A DNA stretch of 32,000 nucleotides from Candidatus Saccharimonadota bacterium (GCF_025273655.1 NZ_CP045921.1:1-32000), one strand, 5' to 3'. Positions 1 to 31,411 are shown, numbered from the stretch's first letter. Notes: generated from the letters alone by a model not told the origin. Made by a program: numbers and translations.

Positions 1-1371
1 ATGGCGACGACCCATTCGTTGTGGCAAAGCGTTCTCGGCGAGATCGAACTATCAGTCTCGCACGCCACGTTTGCCACGTGGTTTCAAAACACCGAACTCC
101 TAGATGATCACGAAGACAATATTACAATCGCCGTTCCGAATGTTTTTGCAATCCGTCAGTTTCAGATCAAATACGACAAGCAGATTCGTGAAGTACTCCA
201 GAAGAACGGTATCAATGCTACGGCTGTACATTATGTAGTCAATAGTAAAGGCAAGAAGACTGTGGTGAACCGCGAGACTACCCGTAACGCCCTTCCCCGA
301 GAAGAGTTCGCACAACTTCCCCAACAGTCCGGCACTCAACCCTCACCGCAAACCGCACCAAACTCACTCAACCCGCGCTACAACTTCGACAACTTTATCG
401 TCGGCTCAAGCAACGACCTAGCCTACACTGCGTGCCGTACGGTCGCAAGTAACCCTGGCACCAAGTACAACCCCCTCTTCCTTTACGGGGGCGTTGGTCT
501 TGGTAAAACTCACCTCATGCAAGCCGTCGGCAACGAAATCAAAGCTGCCAACCCCTCTGCCCGTATCCTCTACATCAATACTGAGACATTTGTCAAAGAA
601 TTTACCGACGCAATCCGATTCAAAAAACAGGTTTCGGATAAATACCGCACCGCCGACGTGCTCATCGTTGATGACATGCAGTTTATTGCTGGCAAAGAGA
701 AGACACAGGAAGAGTTTTTTCATACCTTCAACACCCTCCACCAGGCAAACAAGCAGATTATCATCAGTAGCGACAAACCACCCAAAAGTATCCCCACTCT
801 CACCGAACGCCTGCGTAGTCGCTTCGAATGGGGTATGGCAATCGATATTCAGATGCCTGACTACGAGACGCGCTGTGCGATCATCGAGGCCAAAGCCCAC
901 CTATCTGGCGTCTCCCTCAGTAAAGATACTGTAGAATATCTCGCCGACAATATCAAAACTAATATTCGCGAACTTGAAGGCGCGCTCAATCAGCTTCTGG
1001 CCTATGCCGAGATGCGTGGAATTGAGCCCGATATCGCCACGGCAGAAGGACTGATTGGTAATGTGCGTCGCTCTCGCCCGCAGCACCTAACATCCAAACA
1101 AATCGTCGATCGCACCGCCAAATACTTCCAGCTGCCCGTTGCTGATATGCTCAGCCCTCGCCGCGACAAACATATTGTCTTGCCACGCCAAATCGCCATG
1201 TACTTGCTCCGCAGCGAGCTCCACCTCAGCTTCCCAATCATCGCCGGCGAGCTAGGTCGCAAAGATCACACCACCGCGATTCATTCTGTCGAAAAAATCG
1301 AAAAAGCTATCAAGCTTGACTTCACTGTACGCGAACATGTCGCCGAAATCCGGGAGCGACTCTATGCGTAG
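1..1371 (+). CDS. dnaA: Chromosomal replication initiator protein DnaA (456 aa)
   Basis: ORF starts with ATG at window nt 1 and ends TAG 1369-1371. AAA+ motifs GGVGLGKTHL (Walker A) and VLIVDDMQF (Walker B), RSRFEWG box, C-terminal DNA-binding signature GRKDHTTAIHSVEKI. Classic dnaA-dnaN-recF synteny. Confidence 0.97.
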   Translation: MATTHSLWQSVLGEIELSVSHATFATWFQNTELLDDHEDNITIAVPNVFAIRQFQIKYDKQIREVLQKNGINATAVHYVVNSKGKKTVVNRETTRNALPREEFAQLPQQSGTQPSPQTAPNSLNPRYNFDNFIVGSSNDLAYTACRTVASNPGTKYNPLFLYGGVGLGKTHLMQAVGNEIKAANPSARILYINTETFVKEFTDAIRFKKQVSDKYRTADVLIVDDMQFIAGKEKTQEEFFHTFNTLHQANKQIIISSDKPPKSIPTLTERLRSRFEWGMAIDIQMPDYETRCAIIEAKAHLSGVSLSKDTVEYLADNIKTNIRELEGALNQLLAYAEMRGIEPDIATAEGLIGNVRRSRPQHLTSKQIVDRTAKYFQLPVADMLSPRRDKHIVLPRQIAMYLLRSELHLSFPIIAGELGRKDHTTAIHSVEKIEKAIKLDFTVREHVAEIRERLYA

Positions 1372-1656
1372 TGCGCTTCTTTTTATTCGTACCTGTGGAC
1401 AACGTGTGTACTCGCCGTGGATGAACCATTGGACAACCCGTGTGTTCACATCCACTATGCAGTGGATACCTGCAGCGCCCTCGACCATACCTGAGTATAA
1501 CCCACGGGTTTTGCACCGATTCGTACCCATATTTTCCGCTAGGTTTTCAACAAGTGATACACTCCATCCCACCTCTTACAATTCCTTACTTATCCACCCT
1601 GTCCACAGCACCTACTATTACACCCACCAAATAAAGAAAGGAAAAAGGATATAATA
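1372..1656. other. Candidate chromosomal origin (oriC) / DnaA-box cluster in the dnaA-dnaN spacer
   Basis: 285-bp non-coding spacer with five 9-mers within 1-2 mismatches of TTATCCACA/TGTGGATAA: TGTGGACAA 1394-1402 (8/9), CGTGGATGA 1416-1424 (7/9), AGTGGATAC 1461-1469 (7/9), TTATCCACC 1590-1598 (8/9), CTGTCCACA 1599-1607 (7/9). A+T-rich tract 1611-1656 abuts dnaN. Direct repeat TGGACAAC(CC)GTGTGT at 1396-1409 and 1430-1445. Confidence 0.6.
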
Positions 1657-2757
1657 ATGGAACTCTCTGTCCTTCAAGAACATCTCGCTCGTGCACTTAC
1701 TGCGGTTGGTCGGGTAGCAAGTAGTCGTACTCAATTACCTATCCTGAATAATATTTTGTTTCGCACAGACGGCACTCGTCTACTCGTGGCTGCTATGAAT
1801 ATGGAGATCGCCTCGACACAGTTTGTCGGCGCCAAAATCTCAACACCGGGTGCAATCACAGTACCGGCGAGGCTCGTATCTGATTTTGTCTCGAGCCTAC
1901 CAAAAGGCACGATTGAACTGCAAGTAAAAGGCACACAGCTTCACATCTCGTCTGGTAAATACAGCTCAGTCATCAACGGGCTAGGTGCCGATGATTTTCC
2001 GGAGCTACCGGTAATCGACGAAGAGGTGGCAGTCCGCTATTCTATCGCCGTAAGTGATTTCAAGCAAGCAGTGGCGCAGACGATCGTCACTACGTCAAAT
2101 GATGCAACACGTCCTGTGCTGACAGGTGTGTACTGGCACTCACACGAAGGTGCGCTATACCTGGCTGGTACGGATGGGTATCGCCTAGCGGAACGTCGTC
2201 TCGTGGAAACGACGAGCGAAGTAGCCGCTATCGTACCAACCACCAGTCTGCAGGAAGCCTTACGGACGATTACTGATGATATCAAGGAGATCGAGGTGCT
2301 GTTTGACGAGTCGCAGGTGCGTTTTCGGTTCGACGAAGCCGAGGTAACAAGTCAGCTTATTAGCGGTAACTTCCCACCCTATCGTCAATTGATTCCAGAA
2401 AAAACCGAGACGACCGTGACGCTACCGCGTGATGAATTCGTACGCATTACCAAGATTGCCGGACTTTTCGCGCGCGACTCTGGTGGCAGCGTGACAATCC
2501 GCGCCAGTGAGGAGACAAAGCTCTTGTCGCTGCACTCGGTGGCATCGGAGTTGGGCGAAAACACGTCAGAAGCAGATGCGACCATAGCTGGCGGCGGCAG
2601 TGTCACGCTGAATTCGCGCTATCTTAGCGAGGCACTGGGTGTACTCGATGGCAGTACGGTCATATTTGGTTTTTCTGGTAAGCTGGCACCGACAGTACTC
2701 ACGACAAGCGGCGAAGACGTGAAATATAAACATATCATCATGCCGCTCAAGAGCTAG
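1657..2757 (+). CDS. dnaN: DNA polymerase III beta sliding clamp (366 aa)
   Basis: ATG 1657 preceded by purine-rich AAAGGAAAAAGGA. Length and N-terminus MELSVLQEHLARAL...LPILNNILF are typical of DnaN. Position directly after dnaA. Confidence 0.95.
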   Translation: MELSVLQEHLARALTAVGRVASSRTQLPILNNILFRTDGTRLLVAAMNMEIASTQFVGAKISTPGAITVPARLVSDFVSSLPKGTIELQVKGTQLHISSGKYSSVINGLGADDFPELPVIDEEVAVRYSIAVSDFKQAVAQTIVTTSNDATRPVLTGVYWHSHEGALYLAGTDGYRLAERRLVETTSEVAAIVPTTSLQEALRTITDDIKEIEVLFDESQVRFRFDEAEVTSQLISGNFPPYRQLIPEKTETTVTLPRDEFVRITKIAGLFARDSGGSVTIRASEETKLLSLHSVASELGENTSEADATIAGGGSVTLNSRYLSEALGVLDGSTVIFGFSGKLAPTVLTTSGEDVKYKHIIMPLKS

Positions 2758-2764
2758 GTACTCT

Positions 2765-3808
2765 GTGGATATCACTGGTCTTCGCGTTCAGCACACTCGC
2801 AGCCATGACGATGCGAGCTTTGTGTTTGGTCAGCGCGTCAGCGTGATTACTGGGCCGAACGGATCTGGTAAAACGACACTACTCGAAGCACTTCACGTAG
2901 CGCTGCGGGGCACGTCGTTTCGCGGTAGTGACAGTGAGTTTCTGGCGCGCGATGAGGACTGGTGGCGTATTGATGTACGACTTGGCGACGAGCAGGCACG
3001 TGTAGTCAAGTTTGATAGTACGAAAACCTCTGGTCGTAAGCAATTTGAAATTGATCACAAGATTAACTATCGCCTGCCCGTCAGCAAGAAATATCCGGTG
3101 ATTTTGTTTGAACCGGACGATTTGCGTCTGCTAGGCGGTTCCCCTGCTCGCAGGCGGCAGTTTATTGATACGTTTATAACCCAAATCAATCCACTATACA
3201 CGAGTACCACACGCAAATATGAGCGTGCACTCAAGCAGCGTAATGCCCTATTGAAACAGCCTAGTGTGACGCGTGACTCCCTGTTTGTATGGGATATGGC
3301 AATAGCCGAATATGGTGCTGAGATGATTCGTGAACGCAGTCAGATTATCGAGCGTATCAATCAATCGCTGACGGACACATATCGAAGTATTGCGGGTACT
3401 GACGATACGGCGACGCTTCACTATTCGCATACAATTATCGATGGTATTCAGCAGAAGTTGGCGAACGAGCTGCATTACAATTTCGAGCGCGACAGTCTCC
3501 TGGGCTTTACGAGCACCGGTCCACACCGTCATGATGTGGTGGCGGAGTTCAACGGCGCCCCGGCTACAACTCGTGCGAGTCGTGGTGAAATTCGGAGTAT
3601 TATACTTGCGCTGAAGTTTATCGAAGTGGATGTAGCCGAATCGGCGACTGGCTTGTCACCCGTTGTGTTGCTCGACGATGTGTTTGCTGAGCTTGATGAA
3701 TCGAGGCAGCAACGCCTTGCAGAGAAATGTCGCGGCAACCAGATGTTCATCACCAGTACAGGTGCCTATACTGGCATCGACAGCGCGACGGTTATTGCGC
3801 TCGATTGA
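2765..3808 (+). CDS. recF: DNA replication/repair protein RecF (347 aa)
   Basis: GTG start shortly after the dnaN stop. Walker A GPNGSGKTTLLEAL. SMC-like signature/Walker B region SRGEIRSIILALKF...VVLLDDVFAELDESR. Confidence 0.93.
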   Translation: MDITGLRVQHTRSHDDASFVFGQRVSVITGPNGSGKTTLLEALHVALRGTSFRGSDSEFLARDEDWWRIDVRLGDEQARVVKFDSTKTSGRKQFEIDHKINYRLPVSKKYPVILFEPDDLRLLGGSPARRRQFIDTFITQINPLYTSTTRKYERALKQRNALLKQPSVTRDSLFVWDMAIAEYGAEMIRERSQIIERINQSLTDTYRSIAGTDDTATLHYSHTIIDGIQQKLANELHYNFERDSLLGFTSTGPHRHDVVAEFNGAPATTRASRGEIRSIILALKFIEVDVAESATGLSPVVLLDDVFAELDESRQQRLAEKCRGNQMFITSTGAYTGIDSATVIALD

Positions 3809-18371: not shown

Positions 18372-20216
18372 TTATTGGGTTTGACCAGGTTGCTGTTGTT
18401 GCTGCTGCTGCTTGAGCTGTTCTACGGGGTTTGTACTGACGAGCTGTGTTTCTGTCTGGCTAGCGATAACTTGAATATGAACGTGATTTTGGCCGGCAAA
18501 GAAGAGCCCTTGACCCACTGGGAAGTTAGAGAGACGCTTCATTTCCTCTTCGGTGAGCTTGAACACGTTACTGAGTACATCCACTGCACTGGCTGACTGT
18601 TTGAGAAGCAGCTGCATAGATGAGTTTGCCACGATAGCACGACCCATCTTACTGCCCATAAAGTCTTCGACGTCCTGGGTGATAGTGGTGATGCCAAGGT
18701 AATATTTACGTGCACGTTTAGCAAGACTAAAGAGGAAGTTGGCGGAATCCTCGTATTTCATGAGCTGCCACGCCTCGTCCACGATTAACATGCGTTTTTT
18801 GCGTTGCGACCTGGTGATATTCCAGATATGGCTCAGGACGATATACATTGCCACCGGACGTAGCTCATCTTCCAAGTCGCGAATATTAAACACTACCATC
18901 GCATTGTTGATCTCTATATTGCTTTGCTGACTGAAGATACCTGCAAAGGTACCAGAGGTATATTTGCGTAGGCGCTGCGCAAGTTTTGGACCAGAACCCC
19001 CCATGTGGAGTAGTGTATCGTAGAGATCAGCCATGGTTGGCGGCATGCTGTTGTGTGTAAGTGGATCGCTTGTGATGCCTAAGCGCGCATAAGTGTCGAT
19101 TAATGCTTGATCTAGATCAGCCTCTTCTTCAGGGCTGAGGGTGACATTGGTATTTGTAGCGGTGGCTCCACCAAGCATGAGGCGCAGAAGACCATGAAGT
19201 GTTACTAAGTTGGCTCGCAGTGCATCATCAGCCTCGTCGGTGTCGATTACTTTCGGTAAGTCGAATGGATTGATGCGTACGTCAGAATTGAGACTGAGAC
19301 GAATATAGCTACCACCCACTGCATCACTAAGGCGTTGGTACTCATTCTCTGGGTCTATAATAAGTACATCCGCGCCTGTCATCATGGAGCGAACAGCTTC
19401 AAGTTTGACGGTGAATGACTTACCAGCACCAGACTTTGCGAAGACTACCATGTTTGCATTTTCGAGTGTAAAACGGTCAAAAATCACAAGGCCGTTGTTA
19501 TGCATGTTGATACCGTAGAGAATGCCTTTTTCCTGCGTGAGGTCGGCCGAAGTGAACGGGAATGACGTTGAGATCGCACCTGTATTCATATTTCGGCGAA
19601 TTTGTAGCTGGTCCATGAGCTGCGGAACGGTACTGTTGAGCCCCTGCTCCTGCTGACTACTTGCTACTTTACTAAACACCAATTGCTGACCAAAAAGTGT
19701 TTCTACCTTGTTCTGTACAAAAGTGAGATCATCCATACTGTTGGCATAGAGAGTTATATAGAGGCCGTAACGGAAAAATTTCTCACTTCCCACTTGGAGT
19801 TCATCACGTAGTTCTTCAGCATCTTGCAGAGCTGCTTCGAGGCCAGGGTCTCGCGTCTTGCCCTTTTCTTGGTTGATAGACATGCTCGCTTCAAGTTGAG
19901 TTACTTTTTTGCGCAGGTTTTGCATGACGATCTGCGTATCAACTGGATAGAGGAACATACTAACATCGAGCACTTCATCCATGTTGATGATGCTACTGAG
20001 CCAACCGGTGTAGATCTGGCGGGGATATCCATATATATAGAGTGTGCGGCCGTATTTGGTACCAAGACGGAAGTGGTCGGCGTGGAACTCCAGACTGCTT
20101 GGTGCAATGAGATCGCGCAGTGTATTGACGCCTTTGAGAAACGCCTGCTCGACCTCAGCTTGCTCGCGCGCACGTTGTTCGGCAGCTATATCAACTGCGT
20201 CTTTTTTCTTTGCCAT
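18372..20216 (-). CDS. virB4: T4SS VirB4-family ATPase, Gram-positive PrgJ/TcpF/ConE class (614 aa; appears to lack the extreme N-terminal domain)
   Basis: Walker A FAKSGAGKSFT and Walker B RMLIVDEAWQLM. YPRQIYTGWLSSI segment typical of this class. GGGAGAGGGGA SD. ATG overlaps the TAA of the upstream ORF (TAATG at 20214-20218). Poly-Gln C-terminus QQQQQQQPGQTQ (codons 18390-18410). Confidence 0.9.
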   Translation of the reverse strand: MAKKKDAVDIAAEQRAREQAEVEQAFLKGVNTLRDLIAPSSLEFHADHFRLGTKYGRTLYIYGYPRQIYTGWLSSIINMDEVLDVSMFLYPVDTQIVMQNLRKKVTQLEASMSINQEKGKTRDPGLEAALQDAEELRDELQVGSEKFFRYGLYITLYANSMDDLTFVQNKVETLFGQQLVFSKVASSQQEQGLNSTVPQLMDQLQIRRNMNTGAISTSFPFTSADLTQEKGILYGINMHNNGLVIFDRFTLENANMVVFAKSGAGKSFTVKLEAVRSMMTGADVLIIDPENEYQRLSDAVGGSYIRLSLNSDVRINPFDLPKVIDTDEADDALRANLVTLHGLLRLMLGGATATNTNVTLSPEEEADLDQALIDTYARLGITSDPLTHNSMPPTMADLYDTLLHMGGSGPKLAQRLRKYTSGTFAGIFSQQSNIEINNAMVVFNIRDLEDELRPVAMYIVLSHIWNITRSQRKKRMLIVDEAWQLMKYEDSANFLFSLAKRARKYYLGITTITQDVEDFMGSKMGRAIVANSSMQLLLKQSASAVDVLSNVFKLTEEEMKRLSNFPVGQGLFFAGQNHVHIQVIASQTETQLVSTNPVEQLKQQQQQQQPGQTQ

Positions 20217-21332: not shown

Positions 21333-22205
21333 TTAGTGTAGTGATATCTCCACTTCCTCGTCCGGTAGGCCATGCTTCTCTTCTATGCGATGAGCAAGCT
21401 TGCCTACCGTGTCCACCGTGAGTTCATCACTATTATCTATGAGCTTGATTATATCAGGAGATGGGGTGTTAGTGCTAGTGCTTTGAGTCGAGGATGTGTC
21501 TGGCGTTTGAGTGGTAGTGGAAGCGGGCTGTACCACGGTCTGATGAATGGGCGGATAAGGATTGTATTGTAACTGAGGAACTGTCTCTGGTGGGGGTGCG
21601 GCCATTTGCTGCTGGAAGTTGGTTCGTACCTGCTCCATACCCTCTTCATCCCTAGTATCAAGTATTTGGTCGATTTTTTGGGCTTCAACAGTAGTGTCAT
21701 CTAAAATATCCTCGGTTGAGATAGCCTCGTTGTAAGAAGCTTCGTTCATCGACGCGATACCTTGTTGCTGTACGCCGACTCCACGTACCGCCCAGCCTTC
21801 AGACTCTACTATATCTGTAAGATAGCCGAGTCGCCGCTTAGCTTCATCTTGAGATATGTCTTTGGTGAGTTCTGGCTCAAGAGTCTTGGGTGCAGTGATC
21901 TCGATCAGAGAATCGAGACCATCCGGTTGCCAAAAGCGTTTGCGAGGTTTTAGAAAATAAAAAGAGATCAGCGCCCCTAGATATGCCTCCATCGGTTGGT
22001 CTTTTTTGAGCGGCAACGCAAGCGCCCCAAAAAAAACAATCACCGGTAGAACTATTACCACCAGACCGACAAAAATCTGTGACAATACATACCCGACTCC
22101 GATCGCCATTGCGACAATGATGAGATAGATAAACTGGCGGAAACTAAACGGCCCAAGGAGCTTATCGTCCGCCTCAACATCCTGGGGTACCTTGTACACT
22201 GCCAT
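21333..22205 (-). CDS. PrgI-family (VirB3-like) T4SS membrane protein (290 aa)
   Basis: N-terminus MAVYKVPQDVEADDKLLGPFSFRQFIYLIIVAMAIGVGYVL, second TM LVVIVLPVIVFFGALAL, then KKDQPMEAYL, which is the PrgI-family pattern. It sits directly upstream of the VirB4 genes. The C-terminal half is acidic, then P/Q/T-rich. Confidence 0.7.
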   Translation of the reverse strand: MAVYKVPQDVEADDKLLGPFSFRQFIYLIIVAMAIGVGYVLSQIFVGLVVIVLPVIVFFGALALPLKKDQPMEAYLGALISFYFLKPRKRFWQPDGLDSLIEITAPKTLEPELTKDISQDEAKRRLGYLTDIVESEGWAVRGVGVQQQGIASMNEASYNEAISTEDILDDTTVEAQKIDQILDTRDEEGMEQVRTNFQQQMAAPPPETVPQLQYNPYPPIHQTVVQPASTTTQTPDTSSTQSTSTNTPSPDIIKLIDNSDELTVDTVGKLAHRIEEKHGLPDEEVEISLH

Positions 22206-23042: not shown

Positions 23043-25586
23043 TTATGCGAATGGATTTGAAATCTGCTTGATAAGCTCTTGATTATTTGATTTTGCGAGA
23101 GTGGTCGGATTACCACGAAGTGCTTTTGCTGTCTCTATCATGTTGCGTGTACCTGCTCCATCTGCCGCGTTCATGGCATATTCAAGTATATGCTTGTCTG
23201 CTGTCGCCATGCCCTCTTGCGACATGGCGTTGTTGGCAAGGTTCTCGCGCACTCGCTCTGTGAATGACGCATTACTACCTTGTCCAGATGCATACTCTTG
23301 GATATCGCGCGCTGTCATTACTGCGCCGGCATGTTCGTTGACTGCTGTTGTGACTGTACGAAGTATAACCTGCGGGGCACCTTTATCTCTGGTCAGTTCA
23401 TCGACATAGTGTGCATAGCCATGGTGTGCTTGGCCACTCTCGTCATCAAAACTTCCGACCTGATGCCTAGCTACGTATTCTTTGAACGCGGCAGCGACCA
23501 TTTCCGGTGTTTGGTTGGCACGGTCATCAAGTACGCGCTCGAGCTCGCTATAGTCGGCATGCTGGAGTGAAAGGCCATGGGCGGACACCAGAGAGTCTTG
23601 CTCATTTGCGAGTTCGAGTTCTGCTTGCCCCCTCATTGCGGCCGCAAGATTATCGTTACCCCCCGCCATCTTTTTGGCATACTTTGGATCTTTGAATTGT
23701 TGATTGGTATAGTTTCGCTGTGCATAATTGAGTGCGTTTTGGGATTCAGTATCTTTCTGCTCGTTCATCATTTGCCGATGGTAGCGTCCACCCAATGCGG
23801 AGCCCGCCACACTGCGCGCTCGTCGCTTGACTCCTCCGTCCCCCTCTTTCGGTGTCACGATTTGCCCGAATTTACCACTGTAGGCACGTGCGGTAGCTTC
23901 TTTTTGTTTGCGGTTTGTGAATCCTGTCGCTCGATCTGAGAGTTTTTTGCCCACACCTTTCGCTCGAGACGACAATCCACCGGCAAATTTGGCAAGTTTT
24001 CCGCTTGATTTTAGTAAAAAGTACGTCATGAATAACGGTGCCGTCTGGACGCCAAGCGCGAATACCTGCATAAGTGCCCCGGGACTTGCAGAAAGAAGTA
24101 CGTTTGAAGCAAGTTTTGAGGCTCCAAAAAGAAGTGATATAACGGGGAACATAACAAGTAGTTTTACAAACAACCCCATCCAGCGATCGAACCATTTTTT
24201 GGTATTGGGCAGCAGGAACATTACGAAAATTATTGGCGATAAAACGATGAGAATCGTGATAAACGCTTGTCTAGCGATGAGAATAATCACAACTGTCGCA
24301 ACAGCAACTATGGCACTAATGATAACAGGAGCGAGAAAACCTAGGAGTGCAAACATACTACCTCCTATGACAGATCCACCCACCGCTATAACTGCAGTGG
24401 ATGCTGCACCAATAACAAGCGTACCAGCTAGTACACGAGAGGTTACTGTTTCAAATGTCGAGTTATTGCCTTGCGGCTGTTGCATACCCTCGAACAATTC
24501 TTTCATGGAGTAGCCAGCGATATTGGATATATCAACAGCTAGCATACAGATCCAGAATGATGTATTGACGAGAACTGCAGCTACAATCATGCGAGGGAGT
24601 AGTTTCTTGATACCGTAGTTACTGATCCCCTGTCCTGTTACCTGCGACCAAATGATAAAAAGAAATACGATCACAAACATTACGTTTGCGAGCAGCAAAA
24701 ATCGTGACCAAGATTTCTGCAGTTGAGCACGATTTGTAGGATTAGAGAGACTGTCGTAGCGAAGTAGTGGTTGTAGAAAATTATAGTATAGGCCATCGGC
24801 TATTTTGGCGGTGAATGCCATGGCTGGGCAGATCAGCCAGCCGATTCCTCCGACAACACATACGTCCTTTTTCCCATTTTTGGGTTTTGATTGAAATACA
24901 CCCTGGAGTGCCTCAGCTGGATAGCCGGTTTTTTGCGACATGCATTTATATAGGTCAGCCTCGGAGACGGTTTTAGAAATTCGGCCGGCACCACCGAGCT
25001 CGTTATAGCAATCGTCAAATGCCTTGTTGAGCTTCTTTTTGCAGCCGGCTAGATCCGTTGGTGAAACTTGCTGACAGACGGTTTCAGCGCCGTTATTAAG
25101 CCCTTCGCGCCTGTTGTTTAGGGCCGTACGCTGCTTACCTTTACCATCTTTCGCGTTACCGTTATTGATGGTGATGTTGAGGCGTGCACCATCTCCGCTA
25201 CCAAACCGATAACATCCAACACCATTGTTGCGAGTTGGTATGAGTACGGCTTCGCCTGCTTCGTTGACGTTTCCTTTGAAGCCAATATAATCATCGCACC
25301 CAGTATAGTCATTATCTGTATACCAATGGTCGAAGCCGGATAGGTTTTTAACAGCTCCGTTCGGCGTGCCACTCGAGGTAAAAGACATGCCGTTGTAGTT
25401 GAGGTGGTCGCCGTCCCAGTTTGCGTTTGTAGGGCAACCATCAAAGTTGTAGCCAGTTGAGAGAGTATTACTTGTGGTCTCAGAGCCACAGTTTAGCTTC
25501 GAGGCATGAACTTGCTGTGAAGTTGTAACGCACAGTAGTATACTTGCCGCTACTGCTGTCGCCAAGAGGTAGAATATCTTATTCAC
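23043..25586 (-). CDS. VirB6/TrbL-like polytopic T4SS membrane protein, paralog A (847 aa)
   Basis: GTG 25586. Signal peptide MNKIFYLLATAVAASILLCVTTSQQVHA. About 250-aa Cys-containing ectodomain (DGCPTNANWDGDHLNYNG...SGTPNGAVKNL). GIGWLICPA motif, then at least six hydrophobic helices (FLLLANVMFVIVFLFIIW, MIVAAVLVNTSFWICMLAV, AFITILIVLSPIIFVMFLL). About 300-aa hydrophilic tail. The family call is by topology and resemblance only. Confidence 0.65.
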   Translation of the reverse strand: MNKIFYLLATAVAASILLCVTTSQQVHASKLNCGSETTSNTLSTGYNFDGCPTNANWDGDHLNYNGMSFTSSGTPNGAVKNLSGFDHWYTDNDYTGCDDYIGFKGNVNEAGEAVLIPTRNNGVGCYRFGSGDGARLNITINNGNAKDGKGKQRTALNNRREGLNNGAETVCQQVSPTDLAGCKKKLNKAFDDCYNELGGAGRISKTVSEADLYKCMSQKTGYPAEALQGVFQSKPKNGKKDVCVVGGIGWLICPAMAFTAKIADGLYYNFLQPLLRYDSLSNPTNRAQLQKSWSRFLLLANVMFVIVFLFIIWSQVTGQGISNYGIKKLLPRMIVAAVLVNTSFWICMLAVDISNIAGYSMKELFEGMQQPQGNNSTFETVTSRVLAGTLVIGAASTAVIAVGGSVIGGSMFALLGFLAPVIISAIVAVATVVIILIARQAFITILIVLSPIIFVMFLLPNTKKWFDRWMGLFVKLLVMFPVISLLFGASKLASNVLLSASPGALMQVFALGVQTAPLFMTYFLLKSSGKLAKFAGGLSSRAKGVGKKLSDRATGFTNRKQKEATARAYSGKFGQIVTPKEGDGGVKRRARSVAGSALGGRYHRQMMNEQKDTESQNALNYAQRNYTNQQFKDPKYAKKMAGGNDNLAAAMRGQAELELANEQDSLVSAHGLSLQHADYSELERVLDDRANQTPEMVAAAFKEYVARHQVGSFDDESGQAHHGYAHYVDELTRDKGAPQVILRTVTTAVNEHAGAVMTARDIQEYASGQGSNASFTERVRENLANNAMSQEGMATADKHILEYAMNAADGAGTRNMIETAKALRGNPTTLAKSNNQELIKQISNPFA

Positions 25587-25598
25587 GAGCTGATCCCG

Positions 25599-28124
25599 TT
25601 AAAAATTGCCCTTTGCAAAGTTGTCGATAGAGCCTTTGGATTTACCAACACCAGTGTAGGCTTGGCTTCCTTGAAGGTTTTTTGCTGCACCCGTAACTTG
25701 TTGCTGAATAGCCTGATTGTTTTTGGCCAGATCTTTAATATGTGCTATCTCGTCTGCCCCAGCACCTGCAAGACCATTGGCCGAAAGCCTACCGCCAGCA
25801 AGCTGTTGTGAGACCATGTCATTAAAGCTTGAAACGTTTTGCTCAGGATTGATCATTTGACCGTTAGAGATAGCTGCCTTATTGGCTGCTCCGAGGTATG
25901 CGCTTCCAGAAAGAGCCCCGGCGGTTGCACGAGTAATGACGTTTGCATGGCCTTTGGCCTCTTCTTGAGTTTTATTGATATATTTGCCATACCCAGGGGT
26001 GGTTGTGCCGTCTTGGTTGGTCTTGTCTGCTACATCGCCTATTTTAATCAATTGCGCCAAGGCTGCTGCTTGTTCCTCTGCACTAGTATTTTTATCATCG
26101 AGTATCTTCGCAAGATCTTCGGCAGTCTTTTCTGCCATGACATATGACAAACCTTTTAGTACATCGTCCTCTGCTTTGTGTGCCCCAGCTACGGCTTGCC
26201 CTTGAAGTACTGCATCAAGTCGAGCATTTCCTGTATTCGCACCGCTCATTAGCCTGTCGCGATTAAACTCACCCTGGCTGTATTTGAGCGCTTGTTCTGC
26301 TCTTGCGTCTTTTTCTTTACTATTGAGGTCACGCACAAACGAGCCTGATCCAACCCTTCGTCCAATATGCTTTGCCTTGCCCCATGCACCAGTCGGTGGA
26401 TTCACCTTGTCTGCATAGAGGCCGGCTGCGTTGCGCATTTGGCGGCGTTTGAGCATTTGTTGGCCCTTGTTGTTTGCGCGATCGAGTAGGCCTTTGGTCT
26501 TGTCGTTTGAGATAGCACCGATTTTACCAAGCATACCTCCGGTGCTTTTGAGTATTGCCGGGATGATAAAGAGTGGAATTGCCATGAGTCCTAGCGAGAA
26601 TATCTGCGTGAGTACACCGGTATCACCAAGTAGCACTACACCGGCCGCAAACTGGGCACCACCAAACACTAGGGCTACAAAGGGGTATAGCAGCAGCATG
26701 GAAATGAAGGTATCTTTCCAGCGATCAAACCACTTAGAAGTGTTCGGCAAAAGATAGGCTACAAATGCAAGCGGAGAGATGACTACCAGTATAGTGATTA
26801 TCGCTTGTCTGGCTACGAGGATCAAGATGACTGTGAGTGCAGCAAAAAGTGCCGAGAGCATGACTGGCAGTAGAAATGATAGTGTGCCAAGTAATGCACC
26901 AGACGCCGCGATACCTGCCACCACGACAGTACCGCCAAGCACTCCGGCCATAACGGTCTCAAACGTACTTGGCGTTTGGGCTCCTGCACCAGTTTGTCCT
27001 GTGGAGACTATGAGTTCCTTGAGGTTTGCGCCAATAATATTAGAGAGGTCTACCGCAACAATACAGACCCAGAAAGATATATTGACAAGAATCGCGGCGA
27101 TAATGATACGCGGCAGTAGTCGCTTGATGCTGTATGTGTTGAGTCCGGCTCCCGTGATTTGTGAATAGATGACAACTAGAAACGCACCGATAAATGCCAC
27201 GTTTGCGAGGTTACGCATGTTAGACCACTGGGTTTTTAGCGAATCTTGACTCTGTTGATTTGCCAATGAATCATAGCGCAAAAAACCCTCTAAGAAGTTG
27301 AATACCCCATCGGTTAGTTTGGCAAGAAAACTCGAAGCAGGACATATAATCCAACCAATACCGTCTTGGATTTTACAGGCGACCTGGGCATCGTCGGGGG
27401 GGTTGAACAACCCGGAGAGCTTATCTTTTGGGTAACCAGTTTTTCCTGCTATACATGTGAGCATTTTGTCTTCTGACTCTTTGTTGGCTGGTGTCTTCGC
27501 GCACTCGTCAAATGCGTTAGATATCTTATCTCGACACGCCTGGGCATTATCTGGATCGACGCTTTTACATATTTCGTCGACGTTTTCTTCTAGATTTTCT
27601 TTGGTGATATCTTCATTATTAGCCCCAGTGCCACTAGGAGAACCTTGATTATTCTTACCTTTGCCATTATTGAGGGTGATTTCCTTTTTTGCCGAGTTAT
27701 AGAGTGCACAACCGCCTCCGTAACCATTTCCAAAATGCGTAGGTATAACAGTAGCCTTCGTGGCTGTTTCTGGTGATCCATTGAAGGCTATATAGTCCGA
27801 GCAACCGGCAGTGACATCATTGTCATAGTAGTGTTCCCATCCAAGACCTTTTACTGCTCCGTTTGGTGTTCCACTCTTATTAAATGTTTCACCACCATAG
27901 TTGAGGTGATCTCCATCCCAGTTTGCATTACCGGGACAACCATCCCATTTATAGCCATTGTAACCGGTAACATAGTTTCCGCTAGCTTCACCACAGTCAA
28001 GGGCGTGCGCTGGACCCGCTGTCAGTGTCGAAATGAATACTGTAGTAAACAGACCCAAAAAGGCACTCACGATGAGATGAGTGAATGTTTTCCTGCTAGT
28101 TTTAATATCTACCCTTTTCATCAC
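25599..28124 (-). CDS. VirB6/TrbL-like polytopic T4SS membrane protein, paralog B (841 aa)
   Basis: ATG 28124, or the adjacent ATG 28121 with better spacing from GAGGGTG. Hydrophobic N-terminus. Ectodomain DGCPGNANWDGDHLNYGG...SGTPNGAVKGL, GIGWIICPA, and a TM core collinear with paralog A (RLLPRIIIAAILVNISFWVCIVAVDLSNIIG versus KLLPRMIVAAVLVNTSFWICMLAVDISNIAG). Divergent C-terminal tail. Confidence 0.65.
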   Translation of the reverse strand: MMKRVDIKTSRKTFTHLIVSAFLGLFTTVFISTLTAGPAHALDCGEASGNYVTGYNGYKWDGCPGNANWDGDHLNYGGETFNKSGTPNGAVKGLGWEHYYDNDVTAGCSDYIAFNGSPETATKATVIPTHFGNGYGGGCALYNSAKKEITLNNGKGKNNQGSPSGTGANNEDITKENLEENVDEICKSVDPDNAQACRDKISNAFDECAKTPANKESEDKMLTCIAGKTGYPKDKLSGLFNPPDDAQVACKIQDGIGWIICPASSFLAKLTDGVFNFLEGFLRYDSLANQQSQDSLKTQWSNMRNLANVAFIGAFLVVIYSQITGAGLNTYSIKRLLPRIIIAAILVNISFWVCIVAVDLSNIIGANLKELIVSTGQTGAGAQTPSTFETVMAGVLGGTVVVAGIAASGALLGTLSFLLPVMLSALFAALTVILILVARQAIITILVVISPLAFVAYLLPNTSKWFDRWKDTFISMLLLYPFVALVFGGAQFAAGVVLLGDTGVLTQIFSLGLMAIPLFIIPAILKSTGGMLGKIGAISNDKTKGLLDRANNKGQQMLKRRQMRNAAGLYADKVNPPTGAWGKAKHIGRRVGSGSFVRDLNSKEKDARAEQALKYSQGEFNRDRLMSGANTGNARLDAVLQGQAVAGAHKAEDDVLKGLSYVMAEKTAEDLAKILDDKNTSAEEQAAALAQLIKIGDVADKTNQDGTTTPGYGKYINKTQEEAKGHANVITRATAGALSGSAYLGAANKAAISNGQMINPEQNVSSFNDMVSQQLAGGRLSANGLAGAGADEIAHIKDLAKNNQAIQQQVTGAAKNLQGSQAYTGVGKSKGSIDNFAKGNF

Positions 28125-28225: not shown

Positions 28226-28252
28226 TTGCCAAGTGCTCGTAAATGGTATATT
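28226..28252 (+). promoter_or_regulatory. Candidate promoter for the pilin array
   Basis: TTGCCA (28226-28231), 15 nt spacer, TATATT (28247-28252), preceded by TGG (extended -10 TGn). It lies 16 nt upstream of ATG 28269. The spacer is short, so the call is weak. Confidence 0.3.
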
Positions 28253-28268
28253 TTATTGATAAGTAGTT

Positions 28269-28733
28269 ATGAAAACGAAAATAAAACAAATAGTACACGT
28301 AGTAGGATTTGGCATCATCAGTATGAGTATGATGATTGCTGCATTTGGTGTGTTTGGGGATACTACTTACGCCTCGAGCTCATGTCCTCAGGGTTCATCG
28401 GGAACTGTCAACGGTGTCACCTGTAGTGGAGCCAAAGAGTGTGGCGGCGTGAAGACCGCCATCATTAGCTGTACCGAGTCCGGCGGCAATGATGTGCAAA
28501 ACTCTGGTATTTTAGGTATATTGAAACTCGTTGTCCGCGTACTTGCCATTGGCGTGGGAGTCGTTGCGGTTGCGGGCATAGGCTGGGGCGCGATTCAGTA
28601 TGCAACCGCCCAAGATAATGCAGGCCAAATTAACGAAGCTATCTCTATAATTCGTAACGTTATCATTGGCTTGGTTGCATTTGCTTTTATGACCGTATTC
28701 TTAAACTTTATTGTCCCTGGAGGAGTTCTATAA
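28269..28733 (+). CDS. VirB2/TrbC-like T4SS pilin paralog 1 (154 aa)
   Basis: Signal-like N-terminus, 4-Cys variable ectodomain (SSSCPQGSSGTVNGVTCSGAKECGG...ISCTESGG), then helix-loop-helix core VAVAGIGWGAIQYATAQDNAGQINEAISIIRNVIIGLVAFAFM. Confidence 0.7.
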   Translation: MKTKIKQIVHVVGFGIISMSMMIAAFGVFGDTTYASSSCPQGSSGTVNGVTCSGAKECGGVKTAIISCTESGGNDVQNSGILGILKLVVRVLAIGVGVVAVAGIGWGAIQYATAQDNAGQINEAISIIRNVIIGLVAFAFMTVFLNFIVPGGVL

Positions 28734-28734
28734 T

Positions 28735-29157
28735 ATGAAAAAGCCTACTTTACTGAGATCTCTACTGTTGATACCTGTGCTTTTGGGGGCATTTTTCGTC
28801 GCTGCTCCATCGGCCAACGCTGTCGGTACTTGTAATTTCAATTCGCGCTTCCTTACCTTTCCTACATGGTGGCGAGGAATTCCTACGGACACAGGTACCT
28901 GCTCGCTCAAAATGGAAGACATCCCCCCCGAACGACTCGTATCGATTATCGCTGCCAATATAGCAGAAGTGATTATTCAGTTAGTCGGATACGCAAGTGC
29001 AATATTTATAATTGTAGGTGGATTCAAATATATTACGAGCAGCGGCTCGCCAGATGGTATGACAAGTGCTCGTAAGACGATACAGAATGCAGTGATAGGA
29101 CTCCTTGTGTCTATCCTATCCGTTGGAATAGTAAATATAGTGTTTAGCAGGTTATAA
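28735..29157 (+). CDS. VirB2/TrbC-like T4SS pilin paralog 2 (140 aa)
   Basis: Preferred ATG 28735 with GGAGGAG 12 nt upstream (track start 28711 is TTG inside paralog 1). Signal peptide MKKPTLLRSLLLIPVLLGAFFVAAPSANA, 2-Cys ectodomain, core FIIVGGFKYITSSGSPDGMTSARKTIQNAVIGLLVSILS. Confidence 0.7.
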   Translation: MKKPTLLRSLLLIPVLLGAFFVAAPSANAVGTCNFNSRFLTFPTWWRGIPTDTGTCSLKMEDIPPERLVSIIAANIAEVIIQLVGYASAIFIIVGGFKYITSSGSPDGMTSARKTIQNAVIGLLVSILSVGIVNIVFSRL

Positions 29158-29159
29158 AT

Positions 29160-29459
29160 ATGTCGATGTATAGTATTTTTGCAGGTCTCATCAGTGGGGC
29201 GGATGTCGGACTTAGTGGTATGCAGGTTGCCGATTCTACCACCGCGTGGAATAGCCTTCTTAATACGGTTTATTCTATCGCTGGTATTGTAGCAGTACTA
29301 GTGATCATAGTAGCTGGCATCTACTATGCAACTTCAAATGGTGATGCTGGCAATATCCAGCGTGCCAAAAATGCTATCCTCTACTCCGTAATTGGTATAA
29401 TTGTGATTATTATGGCATTTACAATTACGCAGTTTGTTATCGGACGAGCAGCCGGGTGA
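29160..29459 (+). CDS. VirB2/TrbC-like T4SS pilin paralog 3, short form with no obvious signal peptide or ectodomain (99 aa)
   Basis: Core VLVIIVAGIYYATSNGDAGNIQRAKNAILYSVIGIIVIIMA. ATG lies 2 nt after the paralog 2 stop. Weak SD. Confidence 0.65.
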   Translation: MSMYSIFAGLISGADVGLSGMQVADSTTAWNSLLNTVYSIAGIVAVLVIIVAGIYYATSNGDAGNIQRAKNAILYSVIGIIVIIMAFTITQFVIGRAAG

Positions 29460-29487
29460 ACGGATTAAATAAACGAAGGAACGAATA

Positions 29488-29856
29488 ATGAAGCAGATTT
29501 TTCTTACAATTGCAGTAGTCGTCGGTCTTGCAGGAGGTACGCTCCTCTTCGCAAGCCATGCGGACGCGTTAAATGCGTGGGGTGCATGTAGTAACGGTGG
29601 TAGTGGTGCGGTTTGTAGTGCAAGTGGTTCGGACGACTTCAGCAAAACTATGCAAAACATCATCAACATGATGCTGTATGTACTTGGTGTTATTGCCGTA
29701 ATTGCTATCATCATTGGCGGTATTCGCTATGCAACCGCCAACGGCGATGCGAGTCATATTAAGCAGGCTAAGGATACTATCCTCTATGCTGTTATTGGGC
29801 TCATCGTGGCAATCATGGCCGGGGCGATAGTAAACTTTGTAGTTGGACGTTTTTAG
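29488..29856 (+). CDS. VirB2/TrbC-like T4SS pilin paralog 4 (122 aa)
   Basis: GAAGGAA SD. Signal peptide MKQIFLTIAVVVGLAGGTLLFASHADA, 2-Cys ectodomain (WGACSNGGSGAVCSASG), core IAIIIGGIRYATANGDASHIKQAKDTILYAVIGLIVAIMA. Confidence 0.75.
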   Translation: MKQIFLTIAVVVGLAGGTLLFASHADALNAWGACSNGGSGAVCSASGSDDFSKTMQNIINMMLYVLGVIAVIAIIIGGIRYATANGDASHIKQAKDTILYAVIGLIVAIMAGAIVNFVVGRF

Positions 29857-29864
29857 CGTATAAT
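29837..29864 (+). promoter_or_regulatory. Candidate internal promoter in front of pilin paralog 5
   Basis: TTGTAG (29837-29842), 16 nt spacer, consensus TATAAT (29859-29864). The second in-frame ATG (29872, MKTKYTH...) lies 7 nt after the -10, which is compatible with a leaderless transcript. Confidence 0.3.
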
Positions 29865-30249
29865 GCGACTCATGAAGACAAAATACACACATAAACTAAA
29901 AAGTGCGACAGGTGTACTTACTGCTGCATTTGCAGTTGCAACGGCCTACACTAGCAATGCCTTTGCGAGTGCAGCGAGTGAGATTGGGAGTGGCGCGAAT
30001 TCTACCGGCCAGACAAGCGGGGTTACATTTCAGCAGGGGGTTACGACAGTAACAAATATCCTACTGTTCCTTATTGGTCTTGTGGCCGTGATTATGATCA
30101 TCATCGGTGGTATTCGCTACACTACATCTAACGGAGACGCAAGCCAGACAAAAGCAGCCAAGGACACTATTTTGTATGCTATTGTCGGACTTGTTGTCGC
30201 AATCATGGCGTATGCAATTGTGAGCTGGGTTGTTAAAACCTTTGTGTAG
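29863..30249 (+). CDS. VirB2/TrbC-like T4SS pilin paralog 5 (128 aa, or 125 aa from ATG 29872)
   Basis: Signal-like N-terminus ...GVLTAAFAVATAYTSNAFA, Cys-free Ser/Gly/Thr-rich ectodomain, core IMIIIGGIRYTTSNGDASQTKAAKDTILYAIVGLVVAIMA. Confidence 0.75.
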   Translation: MRLMKTKYTHKLKSATGVLTAAFAVATAYTSNAFASAASEIGSGANSTGQTSGVTFQQGVTTVTNILLFLIGLVAVIMIIIGGIRYTTSNGDASQTKAAKDTILYAIVGLVVAIMAYAIVSWVVKTFV

Positions 30250-30261
30250 TGAGTACAGAAG

Positions 30262-30290
30262 TTTACAACTGGTGTCTCATATGCTATAAA
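30262..30290 (+). promoter_or_regulatory. Candidate promoter for pilin paralog 6
   Basis: TTTACA (30262-30267), 17 nt spacer, TATAAA (30285-30290), with TGC immediately upstream (extended -10). It lies in the 70-bp gap before ATG 30320. Confidence 0.4.
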
Positions 30291-30319
30291 CATACAAAGA
30301 AAGAAAGGAACAAAATCAA

Positions 30320-30760
30320 ATGAAACAACAAGTAAAATCTCTCGCGACGCAGGCGCAGTACTATATGGCGGTGGTGTTTGCGACACTGAGTTTCGCACTT
30401 GCCGGTTTGTTCATGTTGGCTCCAGCTGCGCATGCAGCAGATTGTAACACCCAAGGCGGTGATAATCTTAGTATCTCGGCAGGTGTTAACTGTGCACAAG
30501 GTAAGGATCAACCGACAGAACTGTTTGGCGATCAAGGTATCTTCACCACTGTCACCAACGTACTATTGTTCTTGATCGGTGCGGTCAGTGTGATTATGCT
30601 GATCATTGGTGGTATTCGCTATACTATTTCAAACGGTGATCAGGGTGCAGTTACTTCTGCTAAGAACACGATTCTCTATGCGATTATCGGACTTGTCGTC
30701 GCAATCCTATCGTTTGCAGCCGTCTCATTCGTGACTGGTCAGTTCTCGTCAGAGCAATAG
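30320..30760 (+). CDS. VirB2/TrbC-like T4SS pilin paralog 6 (146 aa)
   Basis: AAAGGAA SD. Signal peptide ending LAPAAHA, 2-Cys ectodomain (ADCNTQGGDNLSISAGVNCAQG), core IMLIIGGIRYTISNGDQGAVTSAKNTILYAIIGLVVAILS. Confidence 0.75.
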   Translation: MKQQVKSLATQAQYYMAVVFATLSFALAGLFMLAPAAHAADCNTQGGDNLSISAGVNCAQGKDQPTELFGDQGIFTTVTNVLLFLIGAVSVIMLIIGGIRYTISNGDQGAVTSAKNTILYAIIGLVVAILSFAAVSFVTGQFSSEQ

Positions 30761-30778: not shown

Positions 30779-30812
30779 ATAAAAATACTCCCCTATCTGG
30801 GGAGTATTCTTA
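30779..30812. terminator. Bidirectional rho-independent terminator between convergent pilin 6 and hsp20
   Basis: Perfect 10-bp stem AATACTCCCC (30784-30793) / GGGGAGTATT (30799-30808) with 5-nt loop. On the minus strand it is followed by TTTTTAT, and on the plus strand by the weaker CTTAT. Confidence 0.65.
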
Positions 30813-30828: not shown

Positions 30829-31305
30829 TTACATAATCTGAATCTTCTTTGCCTGCTCTTGTACTACTTTCGGGAAACTGATAGTTAGTACACCGTCTTT
30901 GAGCGCAGCCTTGGCCTCGTCTTCTTTGACAGCCAGGGGTAATGCTAGTGTACGGCTAAACTCACCCCAGTAGCATTCCTGAATATGCCAGTTGTTGGCC
31001 TCAGATTCGTCACCGCTGCTCAGTGTACCGCTAATTGTCAGAATACCCTCACTAATACTGACATCGAGGTCGTCTTTGTTGACACCTGCGGTACGGGCTT
31101 TGATAACAAGCTCGTCATTTGTTTCATATACATCCACGGCGAGTTGCCCTGGGAAGTCATCTTCCTCGGGTTCGTCGAGTGGTGCTGGTTGGGCTGCTGG
31201 TTGAACGTAGTCGTCCTGAGGTGTTTGGGTCAGATCGTCGTCGTTCAGAAATGCAGCCGCCAGTTCGTCTTCGATTAGTAAATCGTCGTCTTTTTTACGG
31301 GCCAT
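30829..31305 (-). CDS. hsp20: Small heat-shock protein, Hsp20/alpha-crystallin family (158 aa)
   Basis: Preferred ATG 31305 with GGAGGA 6 nt upstream (track start 31317 is the GTG inside that SD). Alpha-crystallin motifs LAVDVYETNDELVIKARTAGV, GILTISG, FSRTLALP, AALKDGVLTISFPK. Confidence 0.9.
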   Translation of the reverse strand: MARKKDDDLLIEDELAAAFLNDDDLTQTPQDDYVQPAAQPAPLDEPEEDDFPGQLAVDVYETNDELVIKARTAGVNKDDLDVSISEGILTISGTLSSGDESEANNWHIQECYWGEFSRTLALPLAVKEDEAKAALKDGVLTISFPKVVQEQAKKIQIM

Positions 31306-31411
31306 GATATCCTCCACTTTTCTCTAGGCTCTATCGACAGATAGTCCCTTTTAGTATAACAAAGGCAAGGTTATAATCAATAGCGACACTACTATAGACG
31401 TAAAAAGTACA

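Follow-up and report, generated by a model that had tools for sequence, protein, structure and literature searches.

The role of Saccharibacteria's essential type IV secretion system (T4SS) was called completely unknown in a field review (PMC11665869), and the oddest feature of this system is its array of pilin genes. In Candidatus Southlakia epibionticum ML1, Wang et al. (2023; PMC10633639) described several predicted pilins, encoded within the T4SS cluster, that are essential. The six pilin genes SEML1_0014-0019 are each called GD/ES/ES (Table S1, PMC10633639), and insertions found in them by transposon-insertion sequencing (Tn-seq) were close to zero at T1 and T2, except for SEML1_0018 (2 and 1; PMC10633639). 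The survey of Patescibacteria by Quinonero-Coronel et al. (2025) recorded 441 VirB2 arrays, spread over 383 assemblies; each array has 2-11 genes, and the mean identity within an array is 25% (PMC12102498). VirB2-like pilins are also reported from Gram-positive conjugative systems, e.g., PrgF_B2 of pCF10 (bioRxiv 10.64898/2025.12.18.695078). Here we analyze a window of 32,000 nucleotides, the whole stretch NZ_CP045921.1:1-32000 of GCF_025273655.1 (Candidatus Saccharimonadota bacterium), in which ORF calling placed six small open reading frames (ORFs), P1 to P6, on the plus strand at 28269-30760. P1-P6 are genuine VirB2-like pilin paralogs located beside the T4SS of Candidatus Mycosynbacter amalyticus; protein comparison found proteins of this organism identical to P1, P2, P4, P6, and the neighboring VirB6-like protein.

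The locus resembles that of S. epibionticum ML1. Both have six tandem PF18895 genes opposite two VirB6-like genes near dnaA, with pilins of 132, 185, 103, 126, 127, and 138 amino acids (aa) in ML1 and of 154, 140, 99, 122, 128, and 146 aa here, i.e., in matching order. In ML1, too, about 80 nt separate the fifth gene from the sixth, hsp20 is convergent with the array, and a seventh pilin gene (P7) follows farther on, on the opposite strand. The two differ in genus and host (M. amalyticus lyses Gordonia) and in the ectodomain sequences, and essentiality was measured only in ML1. The locus also fits the published description of patescibacterial VirB2 arrays as tandem genes near virB4, of low identity, rich in Saccharimonadia and close to dnaA (PMC12102498). 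The array and both functional speculations about it are already in the literature (PMC10633639, PMC12102498, PMC12857230), and the present observation is a correct rediscovery of a known array. Our analysis adds the fixed orthologous subunits, a promoter-like element before P6, fusions of P2 with P3 and of many hairpins into one chain, and a testable link to a structure called the lance. We consider it probable that P1-P6 form an ancient, conserved set of specialized VirB2-like subunits of one heteromeric T4SS structure. That the set belongs to a chromosomal, origin-proximal, monoderm-type T4SS (similar to mating-pair formation class FATA, MPF-FATA) essential in Saccharibacteria seems to us equally probable.

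The six pilin classes and their conservation

The six ORFs were confirmed with the coordinates given in the initial annotation, and its assignment of them to VirB2/TrbC-type pilins agreed with both the profile searches and the T4SS context. In the Pfam search all six matched PF18895 (T4SS_pilin) with E-values from 4e-5 to 4e-13, which is far beyond chance, so that the core was assigned to a pilin family and not to an unrelated family. P1 scored 24.2 bits (E 3.7e-5), just under the gathering threshold of 26.6 bits, while P2 to P6 were above it with 28.2, 49.8, 48.0, 44.4, and 38.3 bits. For PF04956 (TrbC/VirB2) only P4 (33.7 bits) passed the gathering threshold of 27.9 bits; P5 scored 24.9 and P3 23.5 bits, and P1, P2, and P6 were not listed. 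The NCBIfam model NF045849 (Mbov_0395 pilin-like conjugal transfer protein) from a Mycoplasma integrative and conjugative element (ICE) gave 52.4 bits for P3, 41.7 for P4, 35.9 for P5, 26.1 for P6, and 19.5 for P2, with no match for P1. P3 and P4 are above the cut-off of 40 bits; the model has the type equivalog, although the context here is not an ICE. That P3 and P4 exceed this cut-off suggests that the pilins originate from the monoderm MPF-FATA lineage itself and were not acquired from diderm systems, an origin left open as a possibility by the 2025 survey (PMC12102498). In RefSeq, P4 is a "TrbC/VirB2 family protein", and the name "pilin" is given to each of P3, P5, and P6.

By alignment, P1-P6 have a C-terminal helix-loop-helix in common and unrelated N-terminal parts, and the overall identity of the other paralogs to P1 was 18-26%. 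Hydropathy analysis gave two hydrophobic segments per paralog, with a short loop of polar or charged residues between them. The core motif described in the initial annotation was therefore found in all six as far as the helix-loop-helix is concerned, but the P1 loop (GAIQYATAQDNAGQ) contains no basic residue and deviates from it. At 28587-28650 the P1 loop is GAIQYATAQDNAGQINEAIS, with no Lys or Arg, while the loops of P2 and P4-P7 have two to three such residues; R and K are present in the P3 loop, GIYYATSNGDAGNIQRAKNAIL, which was left out of this count. In a tube whose lumen is lined by the loops, P1 would add a different charge, which fits a special position such as the tip or base. Cysteine counts for P1 to P6 were 4, 2, 0, 2, 0, and 2, as previously described. 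P3 indeed lacks a signal peptide; it was also said to lack an ectodomain, but has an N-terminal tail of about 28 residues that is conserved in its orthologs.

Signal peptides on five of the six proteins would also agree with the older TM7x "Sec secreted array" reading, in which the proteins are Sec-secreted soluble effectors, and such genes are called "putative effector genes" in the TM7x literature (PMC10768705, PMC12102498). However, each protein has two strongly hydrophobic C-terminal helices and matches pilin profiles, and P3 has no signal peptide at all. We therefore give the effector reading almost no credence.

Four strain-level contigs carrying the array were compared. One JR1-like contig of Ca. 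Mycosynbacter amalyticus was nucleotide-identical (100%) over the array, and the strains differed by 0-2 residues per gene; one contig had a single change, G46V in P6. The most distant contig had 7 nonsynonymous and 12 synonymous changes in the array. Six of the nonsynonymous changes were located in signal peptides or N-terminal tails and one, I74V in P6, at the boundary between ectodomain and core, with none inside the core. Apparent length variation between strains (P3 of 97 or 99 aa; P5 of 125 or 128 aa) was due to differing start-codon calls and is not real variation.

The order VirB6-like gene, P1-P6, hsp20, one gene and the opposite-strand seventh pilin was kept, with matching gene sizes, in the sister species, CP066696 and RAAC3_TM7_1 (loci L010, L011, L012). 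A scan of genome contigs with the VirB6-like protein alone as query gave no confirmed relative. When a P2 alignment served as query against species-representative genomes, the scan yielded 59 loci, and ORFs were classed with class-specific profiles. P1-P6 together with an opposite-strand P7 were found in 20 of the 62 loci in the census. In another nine, P1-P6 were found with P7 not detected, and for some of these the contig ends soon after the array; the other loci mostly deviate by one duplication, one loss or contig truncation. When only the cores were compared, the nearest cross-species neighbor belonged to the same class in 32/32 cases for each of P1, P2, and P3, in 27/32 for P4, in 31/32 for both P5 and P6, and in 19/21 for P7. 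Judged from these sequence comparisons, the array is 1:1 orthologous and fixed in gene order across Saccharimonadia.

The ectodomains were described as hypervariable in the initial annotation. This holds between paralogs, where they are unrelated, but not between strains and species. P4 was 86% identical in the sister species. Relative to that species the ectodomains had 80% amino acid identity, a dN (nonsynonymous substitution rate) of 0.13 and a ratio to the synonymous rate (dN/dS) of about 0.06, and the cores 94% identity, a dN of 0.032 and a dN/dS of about 0.03; these ratios are rough because dS was saturated (>1). The signal peptides had 68% identity and a dN of 0.19 (dN/dS not used), and the VirB6-like neighbors a dN of 0.12-0.18. 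On these rates the array ectodomains are under purifying selection, with the split between ectodomain and core in the direction given above. The differences in ectodomain between paralogs thus result from old duplications and not from fast evolution. DNA repeats within the array, between cores, were only 64-73% identical; long identical tracts able to drive recombination were absent from the array, and no recent conversion tracts were found in the window.

These comparisons bear directly on the idea, raised in the initial annotation and already in the literature (PMC12102498), that the array is an antigenic or host-range repertoire, i.e., a set of interchangeable major pilins with quickly diversifying exposed parts. 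The ectodomains do differ wholly between paralogs, with the low overall identity to P1 mentioned above, and array size varies by lineage, with P4, P5 or P6 duplicated at some loci. The idea has also been published for Patescibacteria as a speculation by analogy with the virB2 paralogs of Bartonella and Anaplasma (PMC12102498), where adaptability to different hosts was favored. On the other hand, the strains are nearly invariant, each gene has 1:1 orthologs with their own conserved motif across 32 species (Table 1), the ectodomain dN/dS is low even if rough, and cores that are so dissimilar in DNA offer no long identical tracts for cassette recombination. Furthermore, all six orthologs are needed in S. 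epibionticum (PMC10633639). We found almost no diversification among strains, the order P1-P6 is recurrent, and our comparisons give no support to host adaptability in this clade. A repertoire is therefore improbable. The question is narrowed by this: the paralogs act like fixed, non-interchangeable machine parts and not like a variable coat.

The genes could instead be redundant duplicates that are kept for dosage and do the same job. The cores of P4-P7 are 0.50-0.70 identical, and within one genome P4 and P5 cores (0.64) are more alike than P4 orthologs between species (0.55). P1, P2, and P3 are however deeply divergent (0.23-0.41 to the others) and each has been kept through the whole history of the class, and every array gene is essential in S. 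epibionticum, where only the separate P7 is dispensable (PMC10633639). Redundancy is consequently very unlikely. The closer likeness of cores within a genome, for which the same trend was observed for P5-P6 and P6-P7, could reflect co-evolving packing surfaces or old gene conversion.

Promoter-like elements and fused pilins

The intergenic gaps between successive genes from P1 to P6 are 1, 2, 28, 6, and 70 nt. A generic sigma-70 scan found 8 candidate promoters where 6.6 ± 2.7 were expected, i.e., no enrichment. The generic promoter and terminator scan overlooked both the element before P6 and the hairpin between P6 and hsp20, and cross-species conservation and direct folding were used in its place. 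The region of 60-80 nt before P6 contains an element of conserved position, made up of TTAACA or TTTACA, a spacer that varies, an extended -10 (TGnTATAA) and, after it, a AGAAAGGA ribosome-binding site (RBS); the corresponding gap before the sixth pilin gene of S. epibionticum is 83 nt (PMC10633639). The pattern T[TA][ATG]ACA-N13-15-TGnTA[TC]A[AC]n, sought within 90 nt past the P5 stop codon, was present in 21 of 32 species, compared to a mean of 0.013 in shuffled spacers, and occurs a single time in the 32-kb window, both strands taken together. The hexamers are kept across species while the spacer varies.

Promoters had been proposed before P1, P5, and P6. The P6 element is conserved as described, and so is that of P1: a CTTGCA...TATCGTATTTTATAG block was found before P1, at the same distance from the MK(I/T)KQ start, in about 11 of the 17 orthologous loci with a trustworthy P1 start, and it corresponds to the scan match at 28226-28254. 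The P5 candidate was confined to this species and its sister species; elsewhere there is a short gap with an AAGGAG RBS. In these two species no Shine-Dalgarno sequence was observed before P5. The perfect TATAAT of the P5 candidate overlaps the first ATG of P5, and a second ATG follows at 29872; the P5 message may be leaderless. P7 has a conserved TAGACT...TGCTATAAT element of its own.

The mean cross-species core identity of P6, 0.75, was the highest of all classes. Together with its own promoter-like element, this makes it likely that P6 is the bulk or major subunit.

P2 and P3 were found as single-ORF fusions of 241-265 aa in three census loci (Table 1). An exhaustive search of representatives with P3 recovered two-hairpin proteins that have the P2 motif towards the N-terminus and P3 towards the C-terminus; at a level of 50% identity they make up at least 16 clusters. 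The fusion proteins include P0189, P0193, P0213, P0216, P0228, P0240, and P0251. A word-indexed search with P2 gave 15 matches and no fusions. The AlphaFold2 (AF2) model of one fusion has four long helices, i.e., two hairpins, with short beta elements in the Cys-bracketed ectodomain. Fusion fits with P3 having no signal peptide, and it puts the N-terminus of P3 on the same outer side as the C-terminus of P2. As Rosetta-stone evidence it indicates that P2 and P3 work as a pair, and they are a candidate heterodimer. The linker of some fusions was observed to carry a Cys pair of its own. Some P3 orthologs found in the P3 search do have a signal peptide and a large Cys-rich ectodomain.

We also found single polypeptides made up of a signal peptide and, behind it, a tandem series of 3-16 VirB2-like hairpins; the largest number of transmembrane helices predicted for them is 32. 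No mention of such tandem-hairpin pilins was found in the literature examined. For the eight-hairpin protein P0157, which was met in three data sources, the ORF is intact and the contig is of patescibacterial type. Next to P0157 there are a further pilin, a fusion of pilin and PKD, and a protein with PKD repeats. The T4SS_pilin-PKD protein suggests that pilin ectodomains may carry adhesin-type modules.

A proposed heteromeric tube

In the mechanism that we propose, each pilin would be inserted with both termini outside (N-out/C-out), the GG(I/F)(R/K)Y..SNGD...AK loop of the hairpin lying in the cytoplasm. For five pilins the route would be via their Sec signal peptides, and P3 may insert as partner of P2, since the two are covalently fused in other lineages. 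After extraction, the hairpins would stack up on the VirB6-like platform to give a single heteromeric tube, with loops lining the lumen and N-terminal ectodomains outside, as in F and T pili and the PrgF_B2 model. P1-P5 would form one tightly packed transcription unit and likely be low-copy initiation, tip or adaptor subunits that replace the missing VirB5, and P7 would be a dispensable sister of P6. Of the two alternatives in the initial annotation, a heteropolymeric fiber is thus favored over a repertoire by orthology, class motifs, purifying selection, P2-P3 fusions and essentiality in ML1, while the filament itself is a proposal.

Several points count against the proposed tube or limit the case for it. 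The AF2 model of P4 is a hairpin (H51-83/H88-121) with a predicted local distance difference test (pLDDT) score above 90 and an ectodomain of low confidence. Foldseek of this model against the PDB gave no match at E ≤ 0.001 to solved VirB2, TraA or TrwL pilins, the top match being ATP synthase subunit c with E 0.5; the fold is therefore that of a hairpin of generic type. No match came from a sequence-profile search of the PDB either, short hairpins being hard for such methods. The census loci were chosen by their P2 ortholog and lineages without P2 are consequently unrepresented, and dS saturation affects the selection estimates. Essentiality may be overstated for upstream genes, since the Tn-seq calls come from small adjacent genes in one operon and from a hidden Markov model that smooths across neighboring sites, and polar effects could make such genes seem essential. 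The likely role of P6 as major subunit leans solely on the promoter-like element and core conservation. Finally, that P1-P6 leave the membrane and polymerize is something they may do, and is so far only proposed.

The same structural results speak for another reading, in which the proteins are membrane-resident parts of a T4SS translocon or assembly platform, the hairpins remaining in the cytoplasmic membrane or the zone of the cell wall and forming no extended external filament. In addition, the abundant filaments of M. amalyticus are made of unrelated Pam pilins (PMC13278184), and the poly-hairpin proteins could equally be membrane scaffolds. This reading has to be set against membership of the pilin profiles PF18895, PF04956, and NF045849, and against labeling in which the related monoderm protein PrgF_B2 behaves as a lumen-lining pilus subunit (bioRxiv 10.64898/2025.12.18.695078). 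The conserved Cys pairs of disulfide type and the exposed motifs in the ectodomains point to surfaces with a function outside the cell, and a tube about 9 nm wide with no protein assigned to it does exist in M. amalyticus (PMC11880426). We regard a purely membrane-resident role as rather unlikely and retain the heteromeric structure as the preferred interpretation.

The tube referred to is the lance, which was observed by cryo-electron tomography in M. amalyticus. It is 8.98 ± 0.58 nm wide and about 60-70 nm long, extends from the inner membrane, has a barbed tip and is induced by the host (PMC11880426). A conduit between parasite and host is 8.6 ± 0.7 nm wide, and neither structure has been assigned a protein (PMC11880426). 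The F pilus is 87 Å wide, a width that matches the lance, with the loop in the lumen and both termini outward (PMC5018250). The abundant thin filaments of M. amalyticus are Pam pili of an unrelated fold (PMC13278184). We tentatively propose that P1-P6 and P7 co-assemble into a heteromeric VirB2-type tube which is the host-induced, barbed lance or conduit of about 9 nm that is driven into Gordonia. P6 would then form the shaft, a P1/P2-P3 complex the tip or initiation structure in place of VirB5, and the conserved Cys-bonded ectodomains the outer surface; the P2-P3 fusions and poly-hairpin proteins would represent the same assembly with its parts covalently joined. The identification with the lance leans on width, inner-membrane origin and the absence of a rival assignment, and we accordingly treat it as doubtful though possible. 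M. amalyticus can be cultivated and has already been the source of cryo-electron microscopy structures of filaments; with the lance described in the same organism, the predictions are directly checkable.

Genomic neighborhood and comparison with known systems

The array lies about 8 kb from the VirB4-like gene (Table 1), and the minus-strand T4SS locus also holds two lysozyme-type hydrolases and an M23 peptidase. The window opens exactly at dnaA, followed by dnaN and recF, which places the T4SS locus at the replication origin; this position was already noted in the literature. In the VirB6-like paralog adjoining the array, the N-terminal extracellular region is large and rich in Cys, and the protein measures 841, 840 or 822 aa depending on the strain.

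In 55 of 62 loci, an hsp20 gene of opposite orientation was found less than 400 nt from where the array ends. Its ortholog SEML1_0020 is essential in S. epibionticum (PMC10633639), and Hsp20 might serve as a holdase for the hairpin proteins. P7 is the sister of P6, with a core identity of 0.70 within a genome, and was kept in 21 of the 32 canonical loci; its ortholog SEML1_0024 is non-essential in S. epibionticum (PMC10633639).

Table 1. Coordinates and properties of the features described. Positions refer to the window unless a locus (L) is named; sizes are in amino acids (aa).
Feature	Position	Strand	Description
dnaA, dnaN, recF	1-3808		Start of window
VirB4-like ATPase	18372-20216	-	PF19044 TraG P-loop, E 2.1e-28; AAA_10; DUF87
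PrgI (VirB3-like)	21333-22205	-	PF12666, E 2.7e-14
Second VirB6/TrbL-like protein	23043-25586	-	847 aa; PF19590 TrbL_3
VirB6/TrbL-like polytopic membrane protein	25599-28124	-	841 aa; divergent from P1; weak PF04610; PF19590 TrbL_3 on identical or near-identical products; RefSeq "type IV secretion system protein"
Promoter-like element before P1	28226-28254	+	TTGCCA-N17-TATTTT; in divergent VirB6-like/P1 region; predicted, consensus scan
P1	28269-28733	+	154 aa; signal peptide; four-Cys ectodomain, ortholog motif CGGV.T.II.C; divergent core; = QHN42265
P2	28735-29157	+	140 aa from ATG; signal peptide; Cys-pair ectodomain, motif C..(R)FLTFP(T/A)W(W/Y)RG..C; ortholog motif C..RFLTFPAWY.GL...C, Cys pair in 32/32
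P3	29160-29459	+	99 aa; no signal peptide; start 2 nt past P2 stop; no Cys in 32/32 orthologs
P4	29488-29856	+	122 aa; signal peptide; C-x8-C ectodomain; most canonical TrbC/VirB2 match; ortholog motif AINVF..C..N..SAVCKA, Cys pair in 28/32, 3-4 Cys in other four
P5 candidate TATAAT	29859-29864		Overlaps first P5 ATG (29863)
P5	29863-30249	+	128 aa; signal peptide; Cys-free Gly/Ser/Thr-rich ectodomain; start ambiguous, 29863 or 29872; no Cys in 30/32 orthologs
Promoter-like element before P6	30262-30290	+	-35 TTTACA (30262-30267), 17-nt spacer, extended -10 TGcTATAAA (30282-30290); then RBS AAAGGAA (30304-30310)
P6	30320-30760	+	146 aa; signal peptide; Cys-pair ectodomain; motif G.DQP..LFGD.GIF, shared by P6 and P7 orthologs; most conserved core
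Strong hairpin between convergent P6 and hsp20	30784-30808	.	Like a bidirectional terminator; minimum free energy -32.4/-32.0 kcal/mol, z -5.4/-7.1 versus shuffles
hsp20 (small heat-shock protein)	30829-31317	-	PF00011, E 3.8e-19; convergent with array
P7	~32413-32838 by offset	opposite to array	Seventh PF18895 pilin, 141 aa; beyond hsp20, just past window
P7 at locus L001	L001 12926-13351	-	PF18895
P7 at locus L002	L002 11211-11636	-	PF18895
P2-P3 fusion	L026 5992-6717		Single ORF
P2-P3 fusion	L032 5899-6624		Single ORF
P2-P3 fusion	L039 5833-6630		Single ORF
Poly-hairpin protein P0157	L072 9925-12387		820 aa, 8 hairpins
T4SS_pilin-PKD protein	L072 13152-14303		383 aa; T4SS_pilin and PKD domain; directly after 8-hairpin protein
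PKD-repeat protein	L072 14325-16481		718 aa
Poly-hairpin protein P0158			552 aa, 6 hairpins
Poly-hairpin protein P0159			1147 aa, 11 hairpins
Poly-hairpin protein P0174			1775 aa, 16 hairpins
Poly-hairpin protein P0162			348 aa, 4 hairpins

In the accessible text of the 2025 survey no analysis of orthology between arrays, of fusions or of promoters is described (PMC12102498), and it is in these respects that the present comparison goes further.

P1-P6 resemble PrgF_B2 and the NF045849 proteins in their small size, in having two helices joined as a hairpin by a short, charged loop, and in being encoded in a monoderm MPF-FATA-type locus with a VirB6-like partner. Those systems, however, have one pilin gene and serve DNA conjugation with a relaxase and a coupling protein, neither of which was recognized in the orthologous system, whereas the present locus has six plus one specialized paralogs with sizeable ectodomains. 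With the diderm VirB2/TrbC/TraA proteins (F, pED208, T pilus, R388) the array shares a signal peptide, two hydrophobic helices and a basic loop, but it has no VirB5 tip protein and no outer-membrane complex, and classical VirB2 lacks long Cys-containing N-terminal ectodomains. Type IV pili and type II pseudopili combine one abundant subunit with a conserved operon of low-copy, non-interchangeable priming and capping subunits. Their fold and machinery are unrelated to those of the array, and the likeness is a functional analogy and not an evolutionary one. Several divergent copies in one T4SS locus are also found in the virB2 sets of Bartonella, Anaplasma, and Rickettsia, where the paralogs have been discussed in terms of antigenic variation (PMC12102498). 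In contrast to these sets, the paralogs of the array are ancient, orthologous throughout the class, nearly invariant between strains and, in ML1, individually required.

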